The notes under the pieces are model-generated. The model had not been told where the DNA came from. It ran no database searches and saw nothing but the letters and a program-made list of their open reading frames with translations. The position numbers were made by a program, and so were the translations under genes. This document shows, piece after piece, positions 31,516 to 54,331 of a DNA stretch of 64,000 bases (positions are counted from its first letter, which is position 1; the number at the start of each line of letters is the position of its first letter). The DNA is from a virus: the IMG/VR virus record IMGVR_UViG_3300035670_000058, positions 32,001 to 96,000 of that record, one strand, 5' to 3'.

Positions 31516-32538
31516 TCATGCCGCAGTTTCATCCACTTTGTAAGGCATAGGTTTGATAGGTTCTGCCCACATCAAAATTCTGCGGTACTTGTTTGACTTT
31601 ACATCGTCATAAACATGTACGCGCAGTTTGAAACCACGGGTAGCAAAATAGTTGTATAGCGTTCTAAACGGGTTGTTCCCCCTTTCTAGTGGCATTTGAT
31701 AATCGACAAACAATGTTTTGCCGGCGAGCAAATCTTTGACTAGGGGAGAATCAATTTCTTGGCGCACATAGGTATCCCTAGTCCTAATACCAGCACGCCA
31801 CGTATTTGGCACTACCTTATACTTATACTCCATATAAGCATAATTAGGCGCTGGTTTATCCATGCGCTTATGCTTTTTCCAGTAATAGCGACGTGATGAA
31901 GCACGCCGCATTTCTTTCTTCTCTTCAGGTGTCATGGATTACCAACCGTCACATCCATCGTAATAACTATCCACTTCCCCTTTGAGATTGTACTGAAAAT
32001 CAAAAAGCGCTGTAGATGATGCAGCAGGAGTGCCGCAACTTCTACAACGCGCAACGCGACCTTTTAGGCTGATTGTTTCTCTAGCCTTTTTGGGGTTAGA
32101 GTGTAGGCACGAAGAACAAACAGGGATTTTACTCCCTTCATGATCTGTCCATCTAGAGGTGGAAACGTGCCCACAGGCCATGACAACACTTGGCTCGACC
32201 ATAATAATCTCCATAGTCGATATCATGTACCGATTATATCAAATTCGTCAAGACTTGTCCATACCAGACTTTCTATATCGGGCACGTAGGGACAGGAGCA
32301 AGGATTCCAGCCCAACAGTCTCTTCACCAAGTTGCTTCAATTCAAAGACAATTTGGAAGAGATCGCTCACAGGAATCTGGATGGAGTTGAGATCACCATC
32401 ATAAGGCTTGGACGAAGCCAGAGCCTCTACAACGGCATTCGTTGCAAGGTACATGGCTTGAATTGTCCCGTCGCCTTTATACTCCCCTGCTAGTTTTTCT
32501 AACAGGAGAATTTGTCTACGGGCCTCAGAAATGCTCAT
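31516..32538 (-). CDS. Three hypothetical proteins (31516-31935, 31939-32226, 32248-32538)
   Basis: Co-directional packed ORFs; SD AAGGAGG before 32538. Confidence 0.55.
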
Positions 32539-32554: not shown

Positions 32555-32599
32555 AAAAAAGGGGACGTACATGAAATGCGTGGATGCATGTACGTCCCC
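32555..32599 (-). terminator. Intrinsic terminator
   Basis: 13-bp stem GGGGACGTACATG/CATGTACGTCCCC plus T6 on the minus strand. Confidence 0.85.
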
Positions 32600-32650
32600 T
32601 CAAGTATCTGAAACAATCGAACATAGCAGAGAGATTGATTAGCCATTTTC

Positions 32651-33247
32651 CTAAGCGGAGGCGACAACCTCTTCCTGCTCAGTATTCGAATACTGGGCAG
32701 AAAGGGCACGCTCGACAGCCTCCTTGAGTCGAGCCAGTTCAGACGCATTGACACCCACCAGAGCCGAAGCATCCAGTTCAGAAAGATTGTCCACGCGGAA
32801 AATCTTCTTGCGGGGGCCACGCTTCTTAGCGAGATTGTTATTCGACTTGAAATTCTGGACTGCATCCCGAACGTACTTAGGAGCGCGGGACGAACCCTCT
32901 TCCACAGAACCTCGGAAATACTGAACCATAAACTGAGTCATCTCTTTCGCATCAGCGAAAGGCTCAGGCTCTTCACCCTGCACCCAAAGGTACGTAGGGA
33001 TCAGATCAAGCCGACGATTGCGATGCGAGATATCCTGAACGATTTGCTCAGCATCATACTTCGCATCGACCGTGAAATCATTGACGATCACTCCATCAGT
33101 CGTGATCTCAAAGTTAGCACGGCCACCAAAGAGATGATAGATACCCTGCCATGCAGCGAGGACAGCGTTTCCTGCGCCATTCTCAACGCCGACAGTAATG
33201 GGCTGAGTGCGAGTCTCAGCCTCAGGGGTTGCGTTAGCCTTAGCCAT
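32651..33247 (-). CDS. Hypothetical, probably abundant protein; monocistronic and enclosed by a long UTR stem
   Basis: 198 aa; tandem promoters, boxA-like element, flanking inverted arms 33276-33309 / 32612-32644. Confidence 0.8.
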   Translation of the reverse strand: MAKANATPEAETRTQPITVGVENGAGNAVLAAWQGIYHLFGGRANFEITTDGVIVNDFTVDAKYDAEQIVQDISHRNRRLDLIPTYLWVQGEEPEPFADAKEMTQFMVQYFRGSVEEGSSRAPKYVRDAVQNFKSNNNLAKKRGPRKKIFRVDNLSELDASALVGVNASELARLKEAVERALSAQYSNTEQEEVVASA

Positions 33248-33323
33248 TGTATTTCGATCCTTTCGATTGGTGTAAGGCTAACCAATCTCTCCATCTATAT
33301 TCGGTTGTTAAGGTGCTGGGAGC

Positions 33324-33458
33324 ATTATCCATGCTTCCCTGAGTCTTGTCAAGACCCTGCCGGTTGTCTAGCGATTTTCCGGCCCGTCTATTCTGGACTC
33401 CCGACCGCCGTTCCCGACCGCCTGTGAGCATCCTAGCGCTTCCCCGTCCCCTTGTCAA
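33324..33458 (-). promoter_or_regulatory. Tandem sigma70-type promoters (P1/P2-like)
   Basis: TTGACA-17-TAGGAT (33458-33430) and TTGACA-17-GATAAT (33352-33324). Confidence 0.8.
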
Positions 33459-33868: not shown

Positions 33869-33897
33869 TTGACAAGCCCGCCCGTTTGTGGGACAAT
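33869..33897 (+). promoter_or_regulatory. Sigma70-type promoter of the rightward small-gene operon
   Basis: TTGACA-17-GACAAT with TG extension. Confidence 0.75.
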
Positions 33898-47094: not shown

Positions 47095-47123
47095 TTGACA
47101 AGCGCCGCGCGGTGTGCGACAAT
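47095..47123 (+). promoter_or_regulatory. Sigma70-type promoter of cassette A
   Basis: TTGACA-17-GACAAT with TG extension. Confidence 0.75.
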
Positions 47124-47239
47124 CCTCTTGTACCCGAAAGGGAGCACCTTTACAAGAGAATAGAGAGGGCAAGGCGAAAGGTAGCCTAATTCTCCGTCCT
47201 GACTAACTAGCATTTATGCTAGAGAAAGGAGGTGAAAAT

Positions 47240-47536
47240 ATGGCAACGTATCATATCGCCAAGATGCGTGTCGTGCGGCCATCCGAAAAGATGGCGGCAA
47301 AGCATCCCGACCGTTTCGCAACGGTTTTCGGTATCTTTGCTAATGAGCAGGGGCAGCGGCTTAGCATTACGTCTAAGGTAATTACCATTGACGAGGCTAA
47401 GGATAGCGATACTACGATTGACATCGTGAATGGTATTCTTACTCTTCCCGATGGAAAGCGTGGTCGCACCGCTTCCGAATCCATTTCGCAGGACGATATC
47501 GAAGCGGAACTCGCAGCGCTTCGCGGAGAGAATTAG
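47240..47536 (+). CDS. Cassette A protein (98 aa), paralog of cassette B
   Basis: SD AAAGGAGGTG; MRVVRP...PDR..TV.G.F...LSI..K.....AK......V.NG.LTLP.GKRGR....AELAALRGE shared with B. Confidence 0.85.
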   Translation: MATYHIAKMRVVRPSEKMAAKHPDRFATVFGIFANEQGQRLSITSKVITIDEAKDSDTTIDIVNGILTLPDGKRGRTASESISQDDIEAELAALRGEN

Positions 47537-47999
47537 TTACTAATTAGCCAAAACCCTCTCTATTCTCAGAAAGGATAAACTAATACTGAATTAGTATTAT
47601 AAAACGAATTGAATTTCGATGCCGGCCAGGTTCTTGAGCCAATGGAGCGTAGCGTATATCAGGTACGCCATATATATTTGAATTTGAATTATGTTCTTGT
47701 TCTTGTTATATATCCTGGATTATATTTGAATTTAAATTCTGTTCCTGTTTTATATTTTAGCCAATAGATTTCCATTCTCATCTGGGGGGGGGTGAGCCAA
47801 TAGAGGGGGGGGGATGAATGCCGGCCAAGCTCACCGACAATGTGAGAATAGAGCCTGTGGGCGACCAATACATTGGTCAGTATTGTCCACCTAGAAACAC
47901 TTGACAGGGTATGCGCCTTGTGGCAGTATATGGGTGTCAGAGATGACAGGGACCCGAGAGGGACCCGAGAACCTTAACAAGTGAATAGCAGGGGATAGG

Positions 48000-48401
48000 G
48001 TGACAAGGCCCGACAAGGGCGAAAGGGAAACTCCCATTAGCGTCACCTACTTCGTGGATCGGATGCGCGTCATCCGGCCCACAGGGAAGACCAAGGATCG
48101 GAACCCTGATCGGGTCTTCACCGTCAACGGCGTCTTCTACTCCACCGAGAGGGATGCCAAGGGCAACATCATCGTCAAGGACAAGTTGTCCATCATCACC
48201 AAGAACGTGGACGTGGATGACGCCAAGTCCACCGAATTCGCCCTTGACGTGACGAACGGCTACCTGACGCTCCCTGAGGGGAAGCGTGGCCGGGTCGCAC
48301 AGGCGGGGCTGGCAGAGGCGGATATCCTCGCGGAATTGGCCGCGCTGCGTGGCGAGGACACCGACGACACCGAAACCGAAACCGAAACGGAAACCGACTA
48401 G
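48000..48401 (+). CDS. Cassette B protein, paralog of A (true start uncertain, possibly ATT 48036)
   Basis: Clear similarity to 47240..47536; promoter TTGACA 47901; acidic TE-repeat tail. Confidence 0.8.
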   Translation: MTRPDKGERETPISVTYFVDRMRVIRPTGKTKDRNPDRVFTVNGVFYSTERDAKGNIIVKDKLSIITKNVDVDDAKSTEFALDVTNGYLTLPEGKRGRVAQAGLAEADILAELAALRGEDTDDTETETETETD

Positions 48402-48801
48402 GTATTAATTCACCCATCCCCTGCTATTCCTACCAATTTAATGAGAATGCCGGCGAGCTGCATATATATACAAATTAAGAATTGAATAAGAAATCTTAAC
48501 CTGTTTACTAAATAAGCCAATAGACTCCCGGCTCAATTGGAGGGGGGAAGCCAATGGAGGGGGGTGGCATAAAGGGACGCCCATACCTGGGATATATGCG
48601 CATATTCGAATTGAATTCGAATTGCCGTTCTGTTCCTGTTTTAGTGAATTGAATTAGCGCACCTGTTCGGTTACGTGCAACGCGCACAGGGATACCTGGC
48701 CGAGCCGGCCAGTAGCTGCGCGTGCAACTACCCTGGATTCGACGCGCACGGCAAAGCCCTACCCGAAGGGGTAGGGCTTGCCTGTTGGGAAGGACTAGGG
48801 A

Positions 48802-49083
48802 CTAGTCGATCATCTCCTCGTAGGGCTTGTCGAAGAAGCCACCGGGGACCGACTCGTTGAGCCTGTCCCACAGGTTCCGCGCTTCCGCGTTCATGTCGCG
48901 GTCACGCATTTCCTGATGGATGAGGTAGAGGCCAAAGGTGACCTCATCGACGGTCGGGACGCCAAGGTCCACGCCCACCGATTCCTGAAGGAGAGCCAAG
49001 GGGAACATGGTGTCGGTACCCTCGTAACCGAAATCCACCAGTGCCCCGTAATCGAGTCCCTTCAGGTACTCAATCGGGTCCAT
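48802..49083 (-). CDS. Cassette C protein (93 aa, acidic), family with E and H
   Basis: SD GGAAGGA before ATG 49083; hairpin at ~48750-48782. Confidence 0.75.
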   Translation of the reverse strand: MDPIEYLKGLDYGALVDFGYEGTDTMFPLALLQESVGVDLGVPTVDEVTFGLYLIHQEMRDRDMNAEARNLWDRLNESVPGGFFDKPYEEMID

Positions 49084-49663
49084 TATTCGGTTATCCTTCC
49101 CTGTTGCCTTGGGTTCTTCCCTTCCCCTTGGGGTCGGTCCCTGCTGTTTCCGACATCCATAGATTAGCACGACCACCATAGGGATGAAGAGCTCAATGTC
49201 ACAAGAATTCGTGACCAATGGCACTATGCAAGCGCCGGCAATTGTGCTACAATCCTCTGGGACAGCCCAGGGTGCGAAGCCAATAGAATGCGTCAGCAGA
49301 CTGGGGCGTGAGCCAATGGAGCGCAGCGTGTATGTTGGGCGCATGGAATATACAGTAGATGAGTATTAGAATTGAACTGCGGTTCTGTTCCTGTACTGTA
49401 GAGGATTAGCCGTTCTGTTCTGTTAGGTATATGGTGTATAGCAAGGTGCCGGCTTCGCGCCATTTCACGCTATCCTGGATGAATCTATACTGATTCGCTA
49501 TGATATAGGCTCGATTTGTCCTGGTCTATTGAGCTATCCAAGCCGGCTCAAATCGCCCAATAATCGATTATTCTGGGCGCAAGAAACCCCTTGACAACAT
49601 TCACCAGGTGCGCTAATCTACTGGTAGATCAAGAAACGCTCCTACAGGGAAGGGACACCAGAA

Positions 49664-49909
49664 ATGTTGGACGCAGCGACACTCATCGAGGACGGGTACG
49701 ACCCGGACATGGCGGCGAAAGAATTGATGGAGGATGCACAATTCATCATCAGCGATCTGGCCGAGGATCTTCGCAGCCAGGATCGCAGACTACAGGATGC
49801 ATTCTCTGGGCAGGAAATCCCCGAAATCGTCTGGGACGCGATCTGCGCCATCAAGGCGACGGTCAAACATCTCGATAGCGCGGAGGATGCACTGGTCCGA
49901 TATATGTGA
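49664..49909 (+). CDS. Cassette D protein (81 aa, acidic helical)
   Basis: TTGACA-17-TAATCT (49591-49619); hairpin 49921-49957. Confidence 0.75.
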   Translation: MLDAATLIEDGYDPDMAAKELMEDAQFIISDLAEDLRSQDRRLQDAFSGQEIPEIVWDAICAIKATVKHLDSAEDALVRYM

Positions 49910-50306
49910 ATAACCGAATATATTAGTGCGGGGGTAATACATACTCCCGCACTAATACATAGCCCTGGAGTAATATATAAGTCCTGGGGTACTAGAATAG
50001 AATATAAATAAATCTTAACAATAAGAAATCTTAACCTGTTTAGTAAATTAGCCAATGGAACGCATGCATAAAAATGCACGCCGAGCCAATGGAGCGTATA
50101 TATAATATTGGGCGGGTGTGTGTTTGAATACGAATTGAACATCCGTTCTGTTCCTGTTTGAATAGCACCTCGATTCCTGTTATGCGCATAAGCGCATAGC
50201 ACGCGCATAGCGTGCGCCTAGGCGTGAGCTTGCCGGCCCTATGGGCCAGGCACTTGAGCATGGTGATAGGGGAGAGGCTTTCGCGCTCTCCCCTATCTGC
50301 TAGAGT

Positions 50307-50612
50307 CTAGTAGTTGACGGGCTTGGTGGACCGGACGAACGAGGCGTACTCGCTGTAGGTCTGGTCCTCAAGGATCGTGCCGTTCGGAGAAGCGGCGTTG
50401 ATCCGGTTGAAGAGATCGACTGCATCCCCGTCCAGATCGCGCCACACCAGATGGGCGTGGATCATCTGGGAGAGAAGAGTGTCGGTGGAGATGGTGTAAG
50501 GATCGCCGCTCTTGACTGCCTCCGCGTAGAGGCTGGCCTCCTCCTGTGCAATCGCCACCAGAACGTGATCCGGCACGATGCTCAGGTAGACCATCATCTC
50601 TTCAGGCCCCAT
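50307..50612 (-). CDS. Cassette E protein (101 aa)
   Basis: SD AAAGGA; hairpin ~50264-50297; similarity to C and H. Confidence 0.75.
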   Translation of the reverse strand: MGPEEMMVYLSIVPDHVLVAIAQEEASLYAEAVKSGDPYTISTDTLLSQMIHAHLVWRDLDGDAVDLFNRINAASPNGTILEDQTYSEYASFVRSTKPVNY

Positions 50613-51050
50613 CTATTCAGTTATCCTTTCCTACTGCTGGCCCCTCTGGCCCTGTCAGATCGTGTATCGATCTGATAGGTGTATCTTCGTCTATAGCGCT
50701 ATCATGATATAGGTCCATATGGGGTAGATATTTGTGACCAATGGCACTTGACACACAGGGGATGATGTGCTAGCCGGCAAATAGAACAGGCGTTCTAAAG
50801 CTGTGCGAGCCAATAGATTCAACATCCATTGAATGGCGCATGAGCCAATGGAGCGTGCCGCGTGTATGGGGCGCAGGAATATATACCAACTATGTATTAG
50901 AATCGAATATCGGTTCTGTTCCTGTCATAATGAATTAGCCTGATGTGTTGTTCTGTTATATCTCCTGAGGCCGGCTGTGCGCCTCTCCTGTGAGTCGCCT
51001 GGCCCTAGGGCAAAGAGAAAGGACCGGGTGTCCAGCCCGGTCCTTAGTCT

Positions 51051-51299
51051 CTAGCGGAAGTCGATATCCAGAATGGTCAGGCTTCCGTCGCTGATTTCCT
51101 TCTGTAGAGCATCGACTTCGATTTCGATGCGAGCGATCTTGGTATGGAGAGTATCGAGGATTTCCGCGAGAGCGATCTGCTCCTCGTTATCATCGGTGAT
51201 TTCGGTGATCTGATCAGCGATCTGGTTGACCCACCAATTCGCGTCACCAATCTGCCCGATGACCTTCTCCAGCCCTTCGATCAGAAGGTCTGTATTCAC
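51051..51299 (-). CDS. Cassette F protein (82 aa, acidic coiled coil)
   Basis: SD GAAGGAAGGA before GTG 51299; hairpin ~51019-51045. Confidence 0.7.
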   Translation of the reverse strand: MNTDLLIEGLEKVIGQIGDANWWVNQIADQITEITDDNEEQIALAEILDTLHTKIARIEIEVDALQKEISDGSLTILDIDFR

Positions 51300-51840
51300 T
51301 TGGGTCCTTCCTTCGCTACTGGCCTGGCCTGTCCTTATTGGGGACAAGCCCATTGTGCGCCTATTCCGCTGATATGTCAATACCCTTTATGCAGTTGGTC
51401 ACTATTGTCCACCTATTCTGTGAGCAGTACAAAGGTCCCAAAAGATGTGACATTTGGCCCTTGACAGGAGCCGGCAGATATGCTAGCTCTACTTGCATAC
51501 TTGCGCAAGCAGCTAAGTGACAAAAGTCACAAAAAAATGTGACAAATGGCACTTGACAAAGCCAATAGACTCCAGGCTCTATCCTGGGCGCAAGCCAATG
51601 GACCTAGCCTTATATCTTGGACGCATGTATGAATATACTGATATACGCATATATGGATGAATTGAATTACGAATTCGGTTCTGTACATGTTCTGTTATAT
51701 GGCCTGGCCTGTTAGGCTGTTCTGTTATAGAGATATAGCGCGATGAATTCCTGGCCGGCTGGTGAGCTTTCCCACGCGCATGGGCCAGGCGATGGGCAAA
51801 GAGACAGGGCCGGGATCGCTCCCGGCCCTGTCGCCTCACC

Positions 51841-52146
51841 CTAGGCTGTAGGGTGGGCCGCTTCGAACGGCATTCCCCGTCCGATCCCCGTCCGATGGGC
51901 GTTAGCCGCATCGTAGAGGCGCTTAGCGATGCCACGGTGACGACGCCAGATCGCTTCGTCCACCAGCCGATCCACCAGCGCGGCAATCGTGCGAGGATCG
52001 ATTTCCTCGCCCGTCACCAGCACCAGCGTGAGGCTACCGGACTCTTCGATCTGCTCCGCGAGGCTGCGAGCCATAGCGAAGATCGCGCCCGACGACTGCT
52101 CCCGCAGATCGAGTGCGATGGGATCGAACATTTGGCCTAGCACCAT
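51841..52146 (-). CDS. Cassette G protein (~100 aa)
   Basis: SD AGGAAAGGA; hairpin 51803-51832 directly after the stop. Confidence 0.65.
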   Translation of the reverse strand: MVLGQMFDPIALDLREQSSGAIFAMARSLAEQIEESGSLTLVLVTGEEIDPRTIAALVDRLVDEAIWRRHRGIAKRLYDAANAHRTGIGRGMPFEAAHPTA

Positions 52147-52664
52147 CCTTTCCTATATCACCTTGGAACAAGGTGATTGTACGCCTCGCGGCTAATAGAT
52201 ACCTAGGGCCAAAAGTCCCGAAAAAAAGTGACAAATGGCCCTTGACAAGCTATGCCGGCATATGTTAGGGGCCAGGTTAAGAAATCTTAGCTTGTTTAGT
52301 AAACTAAGCCAATGGAGCGTGTACTATAAATGGTACGCCCGTTCTATTTCCAGGGCTTGAGCCAATGGACCTAGCCTTATTAGGGGGGCGCAGGAATATA
52401 TCACTGATTGAATTAGAATTGAATTACGGTTCTGTTAGGATTACATACCAATCCAAGTTCTGTTATGCGCATGTATGTATCCTGGGCACATATATCGCCG
52501 GCTGATATATTCCTGGCCTAGCAGTAGCTTGTTGCCGGCGCAACAGCTCATGCGGCATGAAGTATATATTGGTCACTATTGTCCACCCGAATTCTCTTGA
52601 CACAGCCAGGTGCATCCGGTACGCTTAGCCTGCGTCCAGCGGCAAAGATAGTACGGGAGATGAC

Positions 52665-53018
52665 ATGGACCAGAACGGCGGCACTCAGGACTTCCTGAGC
52701 GAGATCGCGCACGCGACATGGATCGCGTGCAACCCTCAGACCACATCCCCTGCCGACGTCGAGGAATTGGGTATCCTCGCAATCCGCGATCTCAACGCAG
52801 CCATCGAGAATGGCGACTACATGATGGCGACCGTAGCCAACGCAATCGTGTCCACCGTCCATCGCGCAATGGTCTGCCGGGGAATGTTCCTCGACGCGAC
52901 CGATCTCTTCTGCCGGGTCAACGCTACTGCCAAGAGCATCGGCATCGATGACATGCTCGACGGGCAGACCTACACCGAATACGTCGAGGCGATCCTCGAC
53001 TGGTACGCTCAGGCGTAG
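52665..53018 (+). CDS. Cassette H protein (117 aa)
   Basis: TTGACA-17-TACGCT (52597-52625); SD GGGAG; hairpin ~53032-53058; similarity to E. Confidence 0.78.
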   Translation: MDQNGGTQDFLSEIAHATWIACNPQTTSPADVEELGILAIRDLNAAIENGDYMMATVANAIVSTVHRAMVCRGMFLDATDLFCRVNATAKSIGIDDMLDGQTYTEYVEAILDWYAQA

Positions 53019-53457
53019 CGATCCACTAGGGTAGGGAGGCTAGCAATAGCCTCCCTATTCCTGTTGCCCTGGCCAGGGGCGCATATATATGCATGCATAC
53101 TCATACAATGGGTATGCAATATTGCGTATAGACGCAATAGAACATCCGTTCTGTTTCGTTCTGAGCCAATGGAGCGTGCGCTGTTATAGGTGCGCCCATG
53201 TTCTGCGCATAGTGTACCGTTCTGTGTTCTGTTATATAGGGCCGGCTATACGATAGGTCCTGGGGTAAGCTTTACCTTGAGCTATATGGCCGGCTCTATA
53301 TCTAATACCTGGGTATACCTTACATCTAGGTATAAGGTACACCTTATAACTTCAGGCCATCTTGGTGACATTTGGCCCATTGACAGTGACCAATGGCATA
53401 TAGTAGAGTACGGGCATGGTCATCTACTTCCACTCCACTAGCACAGGGGGCCACGCT

Positions 53458-53993
53458 ATGGCACCGGATAGGCGCGATGCGCGCGTTGCAGCGCGGATCG
53501 CACAGGCGCAGGATCGCGCTGCGCGCGATGCTCGCAACACTGCGCGCGACAATGGCAAGTCAGAGTCAGATACGGCATACGATTACAGGATGGGAGCGGC
53601 ACAGTGAAGCGCAATCAGGCGCATCCCTGCTACGTCAACGGCAACACCCCTACGGGCATGGCGCATATGCCCATTGGCCGCTACGTGGAGTCAGTCCGCT
53701 ACGGCGCATCCCTCACAATCGGCAACATCGTCCGTCGCAACGCTCTCCGCTACATGCTGGACGATGCCGCACAGGTCGCCGACACCGATACCACAATGGC
53801 GCTGCTAGATACAATCGAACACTACACTCCCAGTGTGCCGCGCTGCATGGGCACCGACACCGACTGCAACCACACACAGTCGGTGCACGACTGGGATGGA
53901 TGCTTGCACGATACGTGCGAGTGCACCCTGCGATACGGTCGCGGTGTCAATCGACTCAATGAGATGATCATGGCAGAGGGATACATGATCTGA
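53458..53993 (+). CDS. Cassette I: two coupled small proteins (53458-53607; 53604-53993 with Cys/His cluster)
   Basis: TTGACA 53380; GTGA overlap; C.H....H....C.H..CEC; hairpin ~54014-54044. Confidence 0.6.
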
Positions 53994-54331
53994 CTTTCAC
54001 AACTCAAATTCACAATTAGGGCCGGTTATACGCCGGCCCTAATTCATATTACCCAGGTTGCGTGATTGCGCAAGTACGCAAGACCCCCCCCTATATTCGC
54101 ATCGAATTAGTGCACATTCAACGCCGTCGAGCTCTGTTACTGTACATAAATCCGAGGTCAACTTTTTGAAACTTTTTAGAATACGTCTGCCTTCATTCTG
54201 AAGGTACTATACAAAAATACGAGGTCAATTTTTTCCAGTTTTTTAGAAGACCTCTAGAGTAAAAAAATGGGAGCAAAAATTTCACAGTTTTTTAGATAAC
54301 TCTCGTCATAGTATACGGTAAAATTGGGCAT

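Follow-up and report, generated by a model that had tools for sequence, protein, structure and literature searches.

A phage gene within a host-type rrn boxA and leader-trailer helix: a probable miniature of the 16S rRNA transcription unit

Why should a phage place a small protein-coding gene behind tandem promoters of the kind found in rrn operons, and between two sequences capable of pairing with each other across the whole reading frame? This question is raised by a 198-codon gene of an uncultured virus (record IMGVR_UViG_3300035670_000058), which we studied in a stretch of 64,000 nucleotides covering bases 32001-96000 of the record. This stretch is called the window below, and all coordinates refer to it. 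The genome of the phage comprises 114,680 bp and has direct terminal repeats. No relatives of it, by DNA or by protein, were found among annotated phage records, and no prophage relatives among 185,579 species genomes.

Strong TTGACA promoters are sparse in this genome and cluster at 29.6-55 kb of the window, beside replication and recombination genes (encoding, e.g., a RuvB-like ATPase and a DUF2786 protein), which indicates an early region, read by the host polymerase. A strong promoter on the plus strand (TTGACA-17-GACAAT; 33869-33897) is divergent from the two promoters of the 198-codon gene, P1 and P2, and points away from them; the segment at 33.3-33.9 kb is therefore a bidirectional early promoter hub. 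The G+C content at 48000-54000 is 0.52-0.54, versus 0.42-0.46 in adjoining sequence.

Layout of the 198-codon gene and of two further units

All elements of the unit lie on the minus strand. A consensus scan placed P1 (TTGACA-17-TAGGAT, 10/12 matches) at 33430-33458 and P2 (TTGACA-17-GATAAT, 11/12 matches) at 33324-33352, with a spacing of 106 bp between them. The -10 box of each is followed by a GCTC-rich stretch that is kept in relatives, and so are the positions of the promoters relative to the conserved motif described below (-145 to -169 for P1; -39 for P2, in L001, L003, L005 and L026). Next comes the 5′ arm of the stalk (33315-33276), delimited by sequence and fold. The 20-mer GCACCTTAACAACCGAATAt (33297-33316) matches in 19 of 20 bases a Chloroflexota rrn element, identified below as boxA, and a sequence scan located the motif ACCTTAACAACCGAATA within it, at 33314-33298. 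Because the -10 box of P2 ends 7-10 nt upstream of this boxA, P2 transcripts should start at it or just before it. Two helix strands were placed in the arm by the fold and by alignment of relatives: that of helix 1, AACAACCGAATATAG (33295-33309), overlaps the 3′ half of the boxA, and that of helix 2 is GAGAGATTGGTTAGCC (33276-33291). The Shine-Dalgarno sequence GAAAGGA (33258-33264), the same in homologues, is outside the stalk and not sequestered. The reading frame itself (32651-33247) belongs to an unassigned phage family with 24 homologues in metagenomes (alignment A1).

The 3′ arm (32644-32612), recognised like its two strands by sequence and fold, begins 6 nt past the stop codon with the helix 2 strand GGCTAATCAATCTCTC (32629-32644) and ends with the helix 1 strand CTATGTTCGATTGTT (32612-32626). 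It is followed by an intrinsic terminator (32555-32599) composed of a GGGGACGTACATG stem of 13-15 bp, a 13-nt loop and T6, which is visible in the fold and the sequence, and was absent from the terminator scan solely because its loop exceeds 8 nt. The original prediction had drawn this layout, with two TTGACA-17 promoters 106 bp apart, the arms, the reading frame and the terminator, and every one of these elements was recovered in its place. The downstream gene starts at 32538, 17 nt past the terminator, and has no good promoter of its own, so that it probably depends on read-through. The relative L001 lacks a terminator past the 3′ arm, which is directly followed by the next gene; hence, the helix is the only candidate there for setting the 3′ end of the message.

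The core of the motif, CCTTWACAA, occurs in only three copies in the whole genome: one at the 198-codon gene and two on the plus strand, at 47146 and 47971. Each copy lies downstream of a promoter, and in each case the complement of the arm is found just past the next reading frame. The plus-strand copies head two paralogous genes, A and B, whose units were delimited by sequence, fold and promoter scan, and their boxA variants by motif scan. Unit A (47095-47575) consists of a promoter (47095-47123), a CCC-GAAA-GGG hairpin, the boxA variant (47144-47163), the 5′ arm (47156-47169), a reading frame for 98 amino acids (47240-47536) and the 3′ arm (47554-47567), with AAAGG at 47571-47575. Unit B (47901-48429) has its promoter at 47901-47929, the boxA variant at 47969-47988, the 5′ arm at 47983-48003, a reading frame ending at 48401 and the 3′ arm at 48410-48429. 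The boxA is in the transcribed leader of all three units, the gap that measures 7-10 nt at P2 being 20 nt in gene A and about 40 nt in gene B. In both A and B, a small GNRA hairpin immediately precedes the boxA. Where translation of gene B starts is uncertain: the listed GTG at 48000 falls inside the 5′ arm and lacks a Shine-Dalgarno sequence, while GAAAGGGA followed by ATT at about 48036 is an alternative that would give a protein ISVTYFVD..., matching the starts of homologues.

The same leader and stalk are carried by the A/B family (A2), unrelated to the 198-residue protein, in the phage itself and in its relatives G001 and G002. A recurring design had been predicted for the three genes, and indeed motif and stalk head all of them as well as homologues in related phages. 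When the whole genome and the relatives were scanned for the motif and its downstream complement, a stalk was present at 3 of 3 genome copies and in 9 of 9 homologues of 47-83% identity.

Homologues of the A/B family number 12, and identities in the two families range from 39 to 91%. Neither the 198-residue nor the A/B proteins had a match in Pfam or among PDB sequence profiles. A PHROGs search of the proteins returned only phrog_14543 (E = 0.035), Foldseek found no match below E = 0.1 in PDB and BFVD, and the best score in the ESM Atlas was 0.76, with nothing usable. The two kinds of protein are not homologous (hhalign probability 0.4%); all that they share is a basic KRG(P/R)R motif with a helix after it. 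The model of the 198-residue protein (m0af3cad5164c, pLDDT 76) combines an alpha/beta N-domain with a long C-terminal helix, and its comparison by VIA-align gave a KH-like N-domain (Z 4.2) and an H-NS-like coiled coil (Z 4.1), both below reliable levels. That the protein might be a nucleic-acid-binding oligomer is only a hint from this model.

A co-evolving helix of the coding-strand RNA

The arms pair in a 16-bp helix with one G·U, a short internal loop, and a 15-position helix with one U·G and one C·A mismatch, so that their alignment reproduced the pairing originally proposed (about 30 bp in two helices, with wobbles and one mismatch). They close the stalk in the minimum-energy fold of the 776-nt transcript (z = -6.75 versus shuffles). 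Among about 190 ORFs of the genome, the strongest duplex between 5′ and 3′ flanks is that of the 198-codon gene, although duplex energy over long windows discriminates poorly, and contiguous-helix length is the better measure.

Covariation was followed in 14 instances: nine distinct homologues of the 198-codon gene, with their flanking DNA (47-83% identity), and five members of the unrelated A/B family, from the phage itself and from G001 and G002. All nine homologues have the motif about 65 nt upstream of the start codon and a 5′/3′ stalk, the sequence of which differs among them; in relatives its length is 20-35 bp. A processing stalk of the leader-trailer type is expected to exceed 17-25 bp. 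In a 14 x 14 matrix of 5′ and 3′ arms, the cognate pair was the best partner in its own row and column in 14 of 14 cases, with a mean duplex energy of -40 kcal/mol, compared with -20 for non-cognate pairs. At positions 8-23 after CCTT, pairing is seen in 12-14 of the 14 instances, and each variable helix column contains 2-4 types of Watson-Crick pair.

The original prediction had also held that the helix forms at the level of RNA, in view of its wobbles. When the 5′ arm of each of the 14 instances was aligned, with a strand-neutral score, to the reverse complement of its own 3′ arm, 351 matches, 16 G·U/U·G mismatches and 6 A·C/C·A mismatches were obtained, and five of the last six adjoin transversions in the internal loop. 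In-helix transitions read on the coding strand thus comprise 16 G·U/U·G and one isolated A·C. A DNA inverted repeat would not give such an asymmetry, and RNA pairing is therefore indicated, in agreement with the prediction. Duplex energy alone does not decide between sense and antisense (mean difference of -2.3 kcal/mol, the sense strand being favoured in 10 of 14). We conclude that the helix is real, that its two strands evolve together, and that selection acts on it in the RNA of the coding strand.

The relationship between the motif and the helix varies. The 3′ half of the boxA and GAATAG begin the phage helix, and CCTT is paired with a distal AAGG in about half of the 14 instances; in L008, ACTT pairs with AAGT, a compensatory change. 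ACCTT is conserved, even though about half of the instances leave it unpaired. As the NN dinucleotide and the GAATA of the motif also covary or pair, part of the motif conservation may reflect the helix rather than protein binding.

Identity of the motif and its spread among viruses

To which known element does the motif correspond? One genome per prokaryote species was scanned with the query GCACCTTAACAACYGAATAG, for which a few matches would be expected by chance. It was found in more than 120 genome stretches, nearly all of them, among the matches listed, from Chloroflexota (Dehalococcoidia, Anaerolineae, Chloroflexia and SAR202). The 16S gene starts 45-125 nt downstream in 44 of the 80 matches listed. 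A further 10-11 of these 80 lie in the 16S-23S spacer, where the element is 72-113 nt upstream of a conserved stretch near the 23S 5′ end, and at three loci Rfam recognised full SSU and LSU genes beside it. Its position upstream of 16S and 23S genes identifies the element as the rrn boxA of Chloroflexota. It has 10 of 12 bases in common with the E. coli GCUCUUUAACAA. The gamma-proteobacterial boxA consensus is GYTCTTTAANA (PMC5725501).

In 16 of the 17 host operons with enough sequence, the 20-mer also forms the base of the 5′ strand of the 16S leader-trailer helix (26-34 bp), its partner being in the trailer, 70-270 nt past the 16S 3′ end, where TTAAGG pairs with CCTTAA. In the phage, the motif is likewise an rrn boxA of the host type, and its placement with respect to the helix is that seen in the host. 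The resemblance to rrn operons, suggested at first by the tandem promoters, is thereby borne out: these promoters are kept in relatives, and the motif is both the boxA that precedes 16S and 23S genes and a strand of their leader-trailer helix. We regard the structure of the stalk and the identity of the motif as well established.

By the boxA match alone, the phage, which is known from metagenomes, probably has a host among Chloroflexota. The CC variant used by the 198-codon gene was seen mainly in spacers and mRNA leaders of Anaerolineae, and this class may be proposed on a weak hint. A cyanobacterial host, suggested by GAACCTTGAAAA (PMC8461337), was considered and dropped when the exact 20-mer was found in rrn operons of Chloroflexota.

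A scan of viral contigs (IMG/VR) with the 17-mer ACCTTAACAACYGAATA gave 83 stretches, and with the variant ACCTTAACAAGTGAATA a further 3. The flanks of the 83 stretches are mutually unrelated and often include an upstream promoter or a nearby tRNA gene, which pointed to a host signal copied by many phages. Several 5′ arms in these contigs read GAATAGTGGGCGGG, near the host GAATAGTGGAAGGAAG. Stalks were sought as a contiguous helix of at least 14 bp, with G·U allowed, between the 42 nt from the motif and the next 2 kb; they were present in 12 of 54 cases downstream and in 2 of 59 in the upstream control of 2 kb. With bulges allowed, about 17-20 unrelated contigs have a boxA and a stalk around 160-1,400 nt. 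About a third of the 83 stretches have a downstream stalk of their own, and stalk-less copies of the boxA are frequent elsewhere among viral contigs. The module is portable: neither the genes nor the phages that carry it need be related.

Variation among homologues of the 198-codon gene concerns both parts of the module. Distant ones (L018, L019 and L022; 39-43% identity) have neither motif nor stalk, and the module is therefore dispensable for the protein and an add-on to it. L015 and L020 keep the stalk and lack a clear boxA. A different leader, CACTTAAGCACAA, is present in L015 (1-100), possibly the boxA of another host lineage, while L020 (130-260) has no recognisable leader. In seven viral contigs (L073, L074, L089, L095, L103, L107 and L125) the 17-mer adjoins tRNA-like sequence (GGGACTCGAACCC and similar); the host boxA may stand at the head of phage tRNA arrays as well.

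Proposed expression mechanism and its alternatives

In our judgement it is rather probable that expression of the 198-codon gene relies on a small-scale imitation of the host 16S rRNA transcription unit; to judge by these sequences, the phage probably makes use of the machinery with which the cell transcribes and processes rRNA in order to express a protein. In the rrn leader, boxA binds NusB/S10 and assembles an antitermination complex, which was proposed to hold the leader strand at the exit channel and so to promote formation of the leader-trailer helix, subsequently cut by RNase III (PMC10250234). In the phage unit, host sigma-70-type RNA polymerase would initiate at the tandem P1 and P2, and the host-type (Chloroflexota) boxA would be the first element transcribed. 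NusB/NusE recruited by it would turn the polymerase into an rrn-type antitermination complex, and this complex would keep the 5′ arm tethered at the RNA exit channel up to the emergence of the 3′ arm. Since the boxA is largely base-paired in the final structure, Nus binding would be possible only co-transcriptionally. The 3′ half of the boxA and the next 30 nt or so would then pair with the sequence that begins 6 nt past the stop codon. Ribosome-binding site and reading frame would thereby be enclosed by a leader-trailer helix of about 30 bp, interrupted by an internal loop. Because of this 6-nt distance, a ribosome that terminates there would disrupt no more than the last few pairs of helix 2, and these for a short time only.

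The helix could be cut by RNase III or merely persist. A search of the phage proteins revealed neither an RNase III nor a dsRBD protein, and an enzyme of the host would be needed for any cleavage. The expected product is a discrete monocistronic message with both ends paired, shielded from end-dependent nucleases and separated from the read-through RNA that would feed downstream early genes. On the other hand, the unit has a terminator hairpin of its own and does not need the stalk for 3′ protection. These molecular consequences, i.e. Nus-factor binding, tethering, RNase III cleavage, high stability and high yield, we infer by analogy with the rrn operons. A fixed sequence of 17-20 nt, partly unpaired and set in a freely varying helix, argues for a protein that reads the motif.

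Other readings of the locus have to be weighed against the imitation of the rRNA unit. It is conceivable, if rather unlikely, that the helix acts purely by pairing of the message ends, as a shield against RNase Y, J or E, with no part for Nus factors or RNase III, the conserved motif being kept as a helix strand or a nuclease determinant. The model for such action is B. subtilis hbs, a monocistronic gene for a small protein, likewise with two tandem promoters, in which a 14-bp interaction between 5′ and 3′ UTRs just upstream of the terminator modulates cleavage by RNase Y (PMC5737220). The phage stalk, too, is just upstream of a terminator, P2 transcripts would begin right at the helix base, and L015 and L020 have retained the stalk in the absence of a clear boxA. 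However, the short helix of hbs, demonstrated by experiment, has no boxA, whereas that of the phage, recognised by covariation, is about twice as long and is built on the rrn boxA. A helix strand alone needs no fixed sequence, so that conservation of a motif matching the host boxA, across unrelated genes and phages and despite freely differing helices, counts against pure end-pairing; the persistence of ACCTT where it is unpaired has the same bearing.

Three boxA copies downstream of strong promoters could also be viewed as a decoy or a sensor, in which boxA RNA titrates NusB/S10 (perhaps also RNase III), or promoters with a GC-rich discriminator track host growth, expression of the enclosed protein being secondary. 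The GCTC-rich sequence past the -10 boxes of P1 and P2 and the frequency of stalk-less boxA copies in other viral contigs are in accord with this idea. We nevertheless consider it improbable, as three copies are few for a sponge, the Shine-Dalgarno sequence is left open, and the reading frames are conserved as proteins in both families. The arms flank exactly one gene, as might be expected of recombination or inversion sites of a mobile single-gene cassette, but a DNA-level inverted repeat of this kind is very hard to reconcile with the excess of G·U over A·C on the coding strand, with the location of the arms inside the transcript, between promoter and terminator, and with the nature of the host counterpart, which is an rRNA leader-trailer helix.

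Returning to the imitation of the rRNA unit, the likeness to rrn leaders (of E. coli, PMC10250234, and of the Chloroflexota loci L146-L225) extends to the tandem promoters, a boxA just past the promoter, and a co-evolving helix of 25-40 bp that joins leader and trailer around the product; the boxA 20-mer itself serves as the base of the helix in Chloroflexota rrn operons and in the phage alike. Unlike in those operons, the phage stalk encloses a translated ORF of 0.6 kb with an exposed Shine-Dalgarno sequence instead of rRNA, and its trailer, 6 nt past a stop codon, is followed by an intrinsic terminator. Enclosing a 198-codon ORF, it would be leader-trailer-like in its working, and not an rRNA leader-trailer helix. 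The lambdoid nut sites resemble the phage unit in having a host-type boxA right after an early promoter, which serves to modify host RNA polymerase (PMC10250234). In contrast to them, the phage boxA is a near-exact copy of the rrn element, fused to a one-gene leader-trailer helix that nut sites lack, and the only counterparts of boxB are the small GNRA hairpins before the boxA of genes A and B, which are not validated boxB elements. Early mRNAs of phage T7, made by the host polymerase, are cut by RNase III into discrete stable messages that end in a stem. The T7 sites, however, are local intergenic hairpins without boxA, as opposed to a long-range helix enclosing a gene.

Among the papers that we searched, none describes a phage or bacterial mRNA held within a leader-trailer helix that bears a boxA. 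The phage unit applies to an mRNA the boxA and leader-trailer architecture already known from rrn operons. The three ORFan proteins are probably, as the sequence of their units suggests, the most strongly expressed early products of this phage. We tentatively put forward a broader view, to which we assign somewhat less than an even chance, that Chloroflexota phages carry a portable "pre-rRNA socket" made of the host rrn boxA and a leader-trailer helix, into which any small gene might be inserted, and that the host antitermination/chaperone complex and RNase III would transcribe, fold and excise the mRNA like 16S rRNA. If so, the socket would constitute a general way of expressing phage genes that has so far not been described; its presence on two unrelated gene families here and in some 17-20 unrelated viral contigs is in keeping with a general expression device. 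The rrn antitermination/chaperone machinery, and with it leader-trailer processing, would then serve mRNAs as well as stable RNAs, and a natural, testable case would be at hand in which co-transcriptional tethering favours the formation of a long-range helix around a translated ORF. Furthermore, the boxA copy could serve as a phylum-specific tag, revealing the host phylum of uncultured phages. Here it would assign an otherwise host-less family of 115-120 kb phages from soil and sediment to Chloroflexota, a phylum with very few known phages.

Elements of the boxA type are not confined to stable RNA operons and phages. In mRNA leaders (of suhB and other genes) boxA recruits the Nus complex, and that of suhB represses translation and promotes Rho termination, in the absence of any leader-trailer helix, which sets it apart from the phage unit (PMC5725501). 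Copies in Chloroflexota genomes also precede a protein-coding gene: the 20-mer was observed 20-165 nt before cas1 at L171 (1141-2109), L180 (2056-2973), L217 and L219. The cas1 assignments were made with the Pfam family Cas_Cas1 (E = 3e-19 and 2e-10), and the arrangement suggests Nus-dependent transcription of CRISPR-Cas loci in Chloroflexota.
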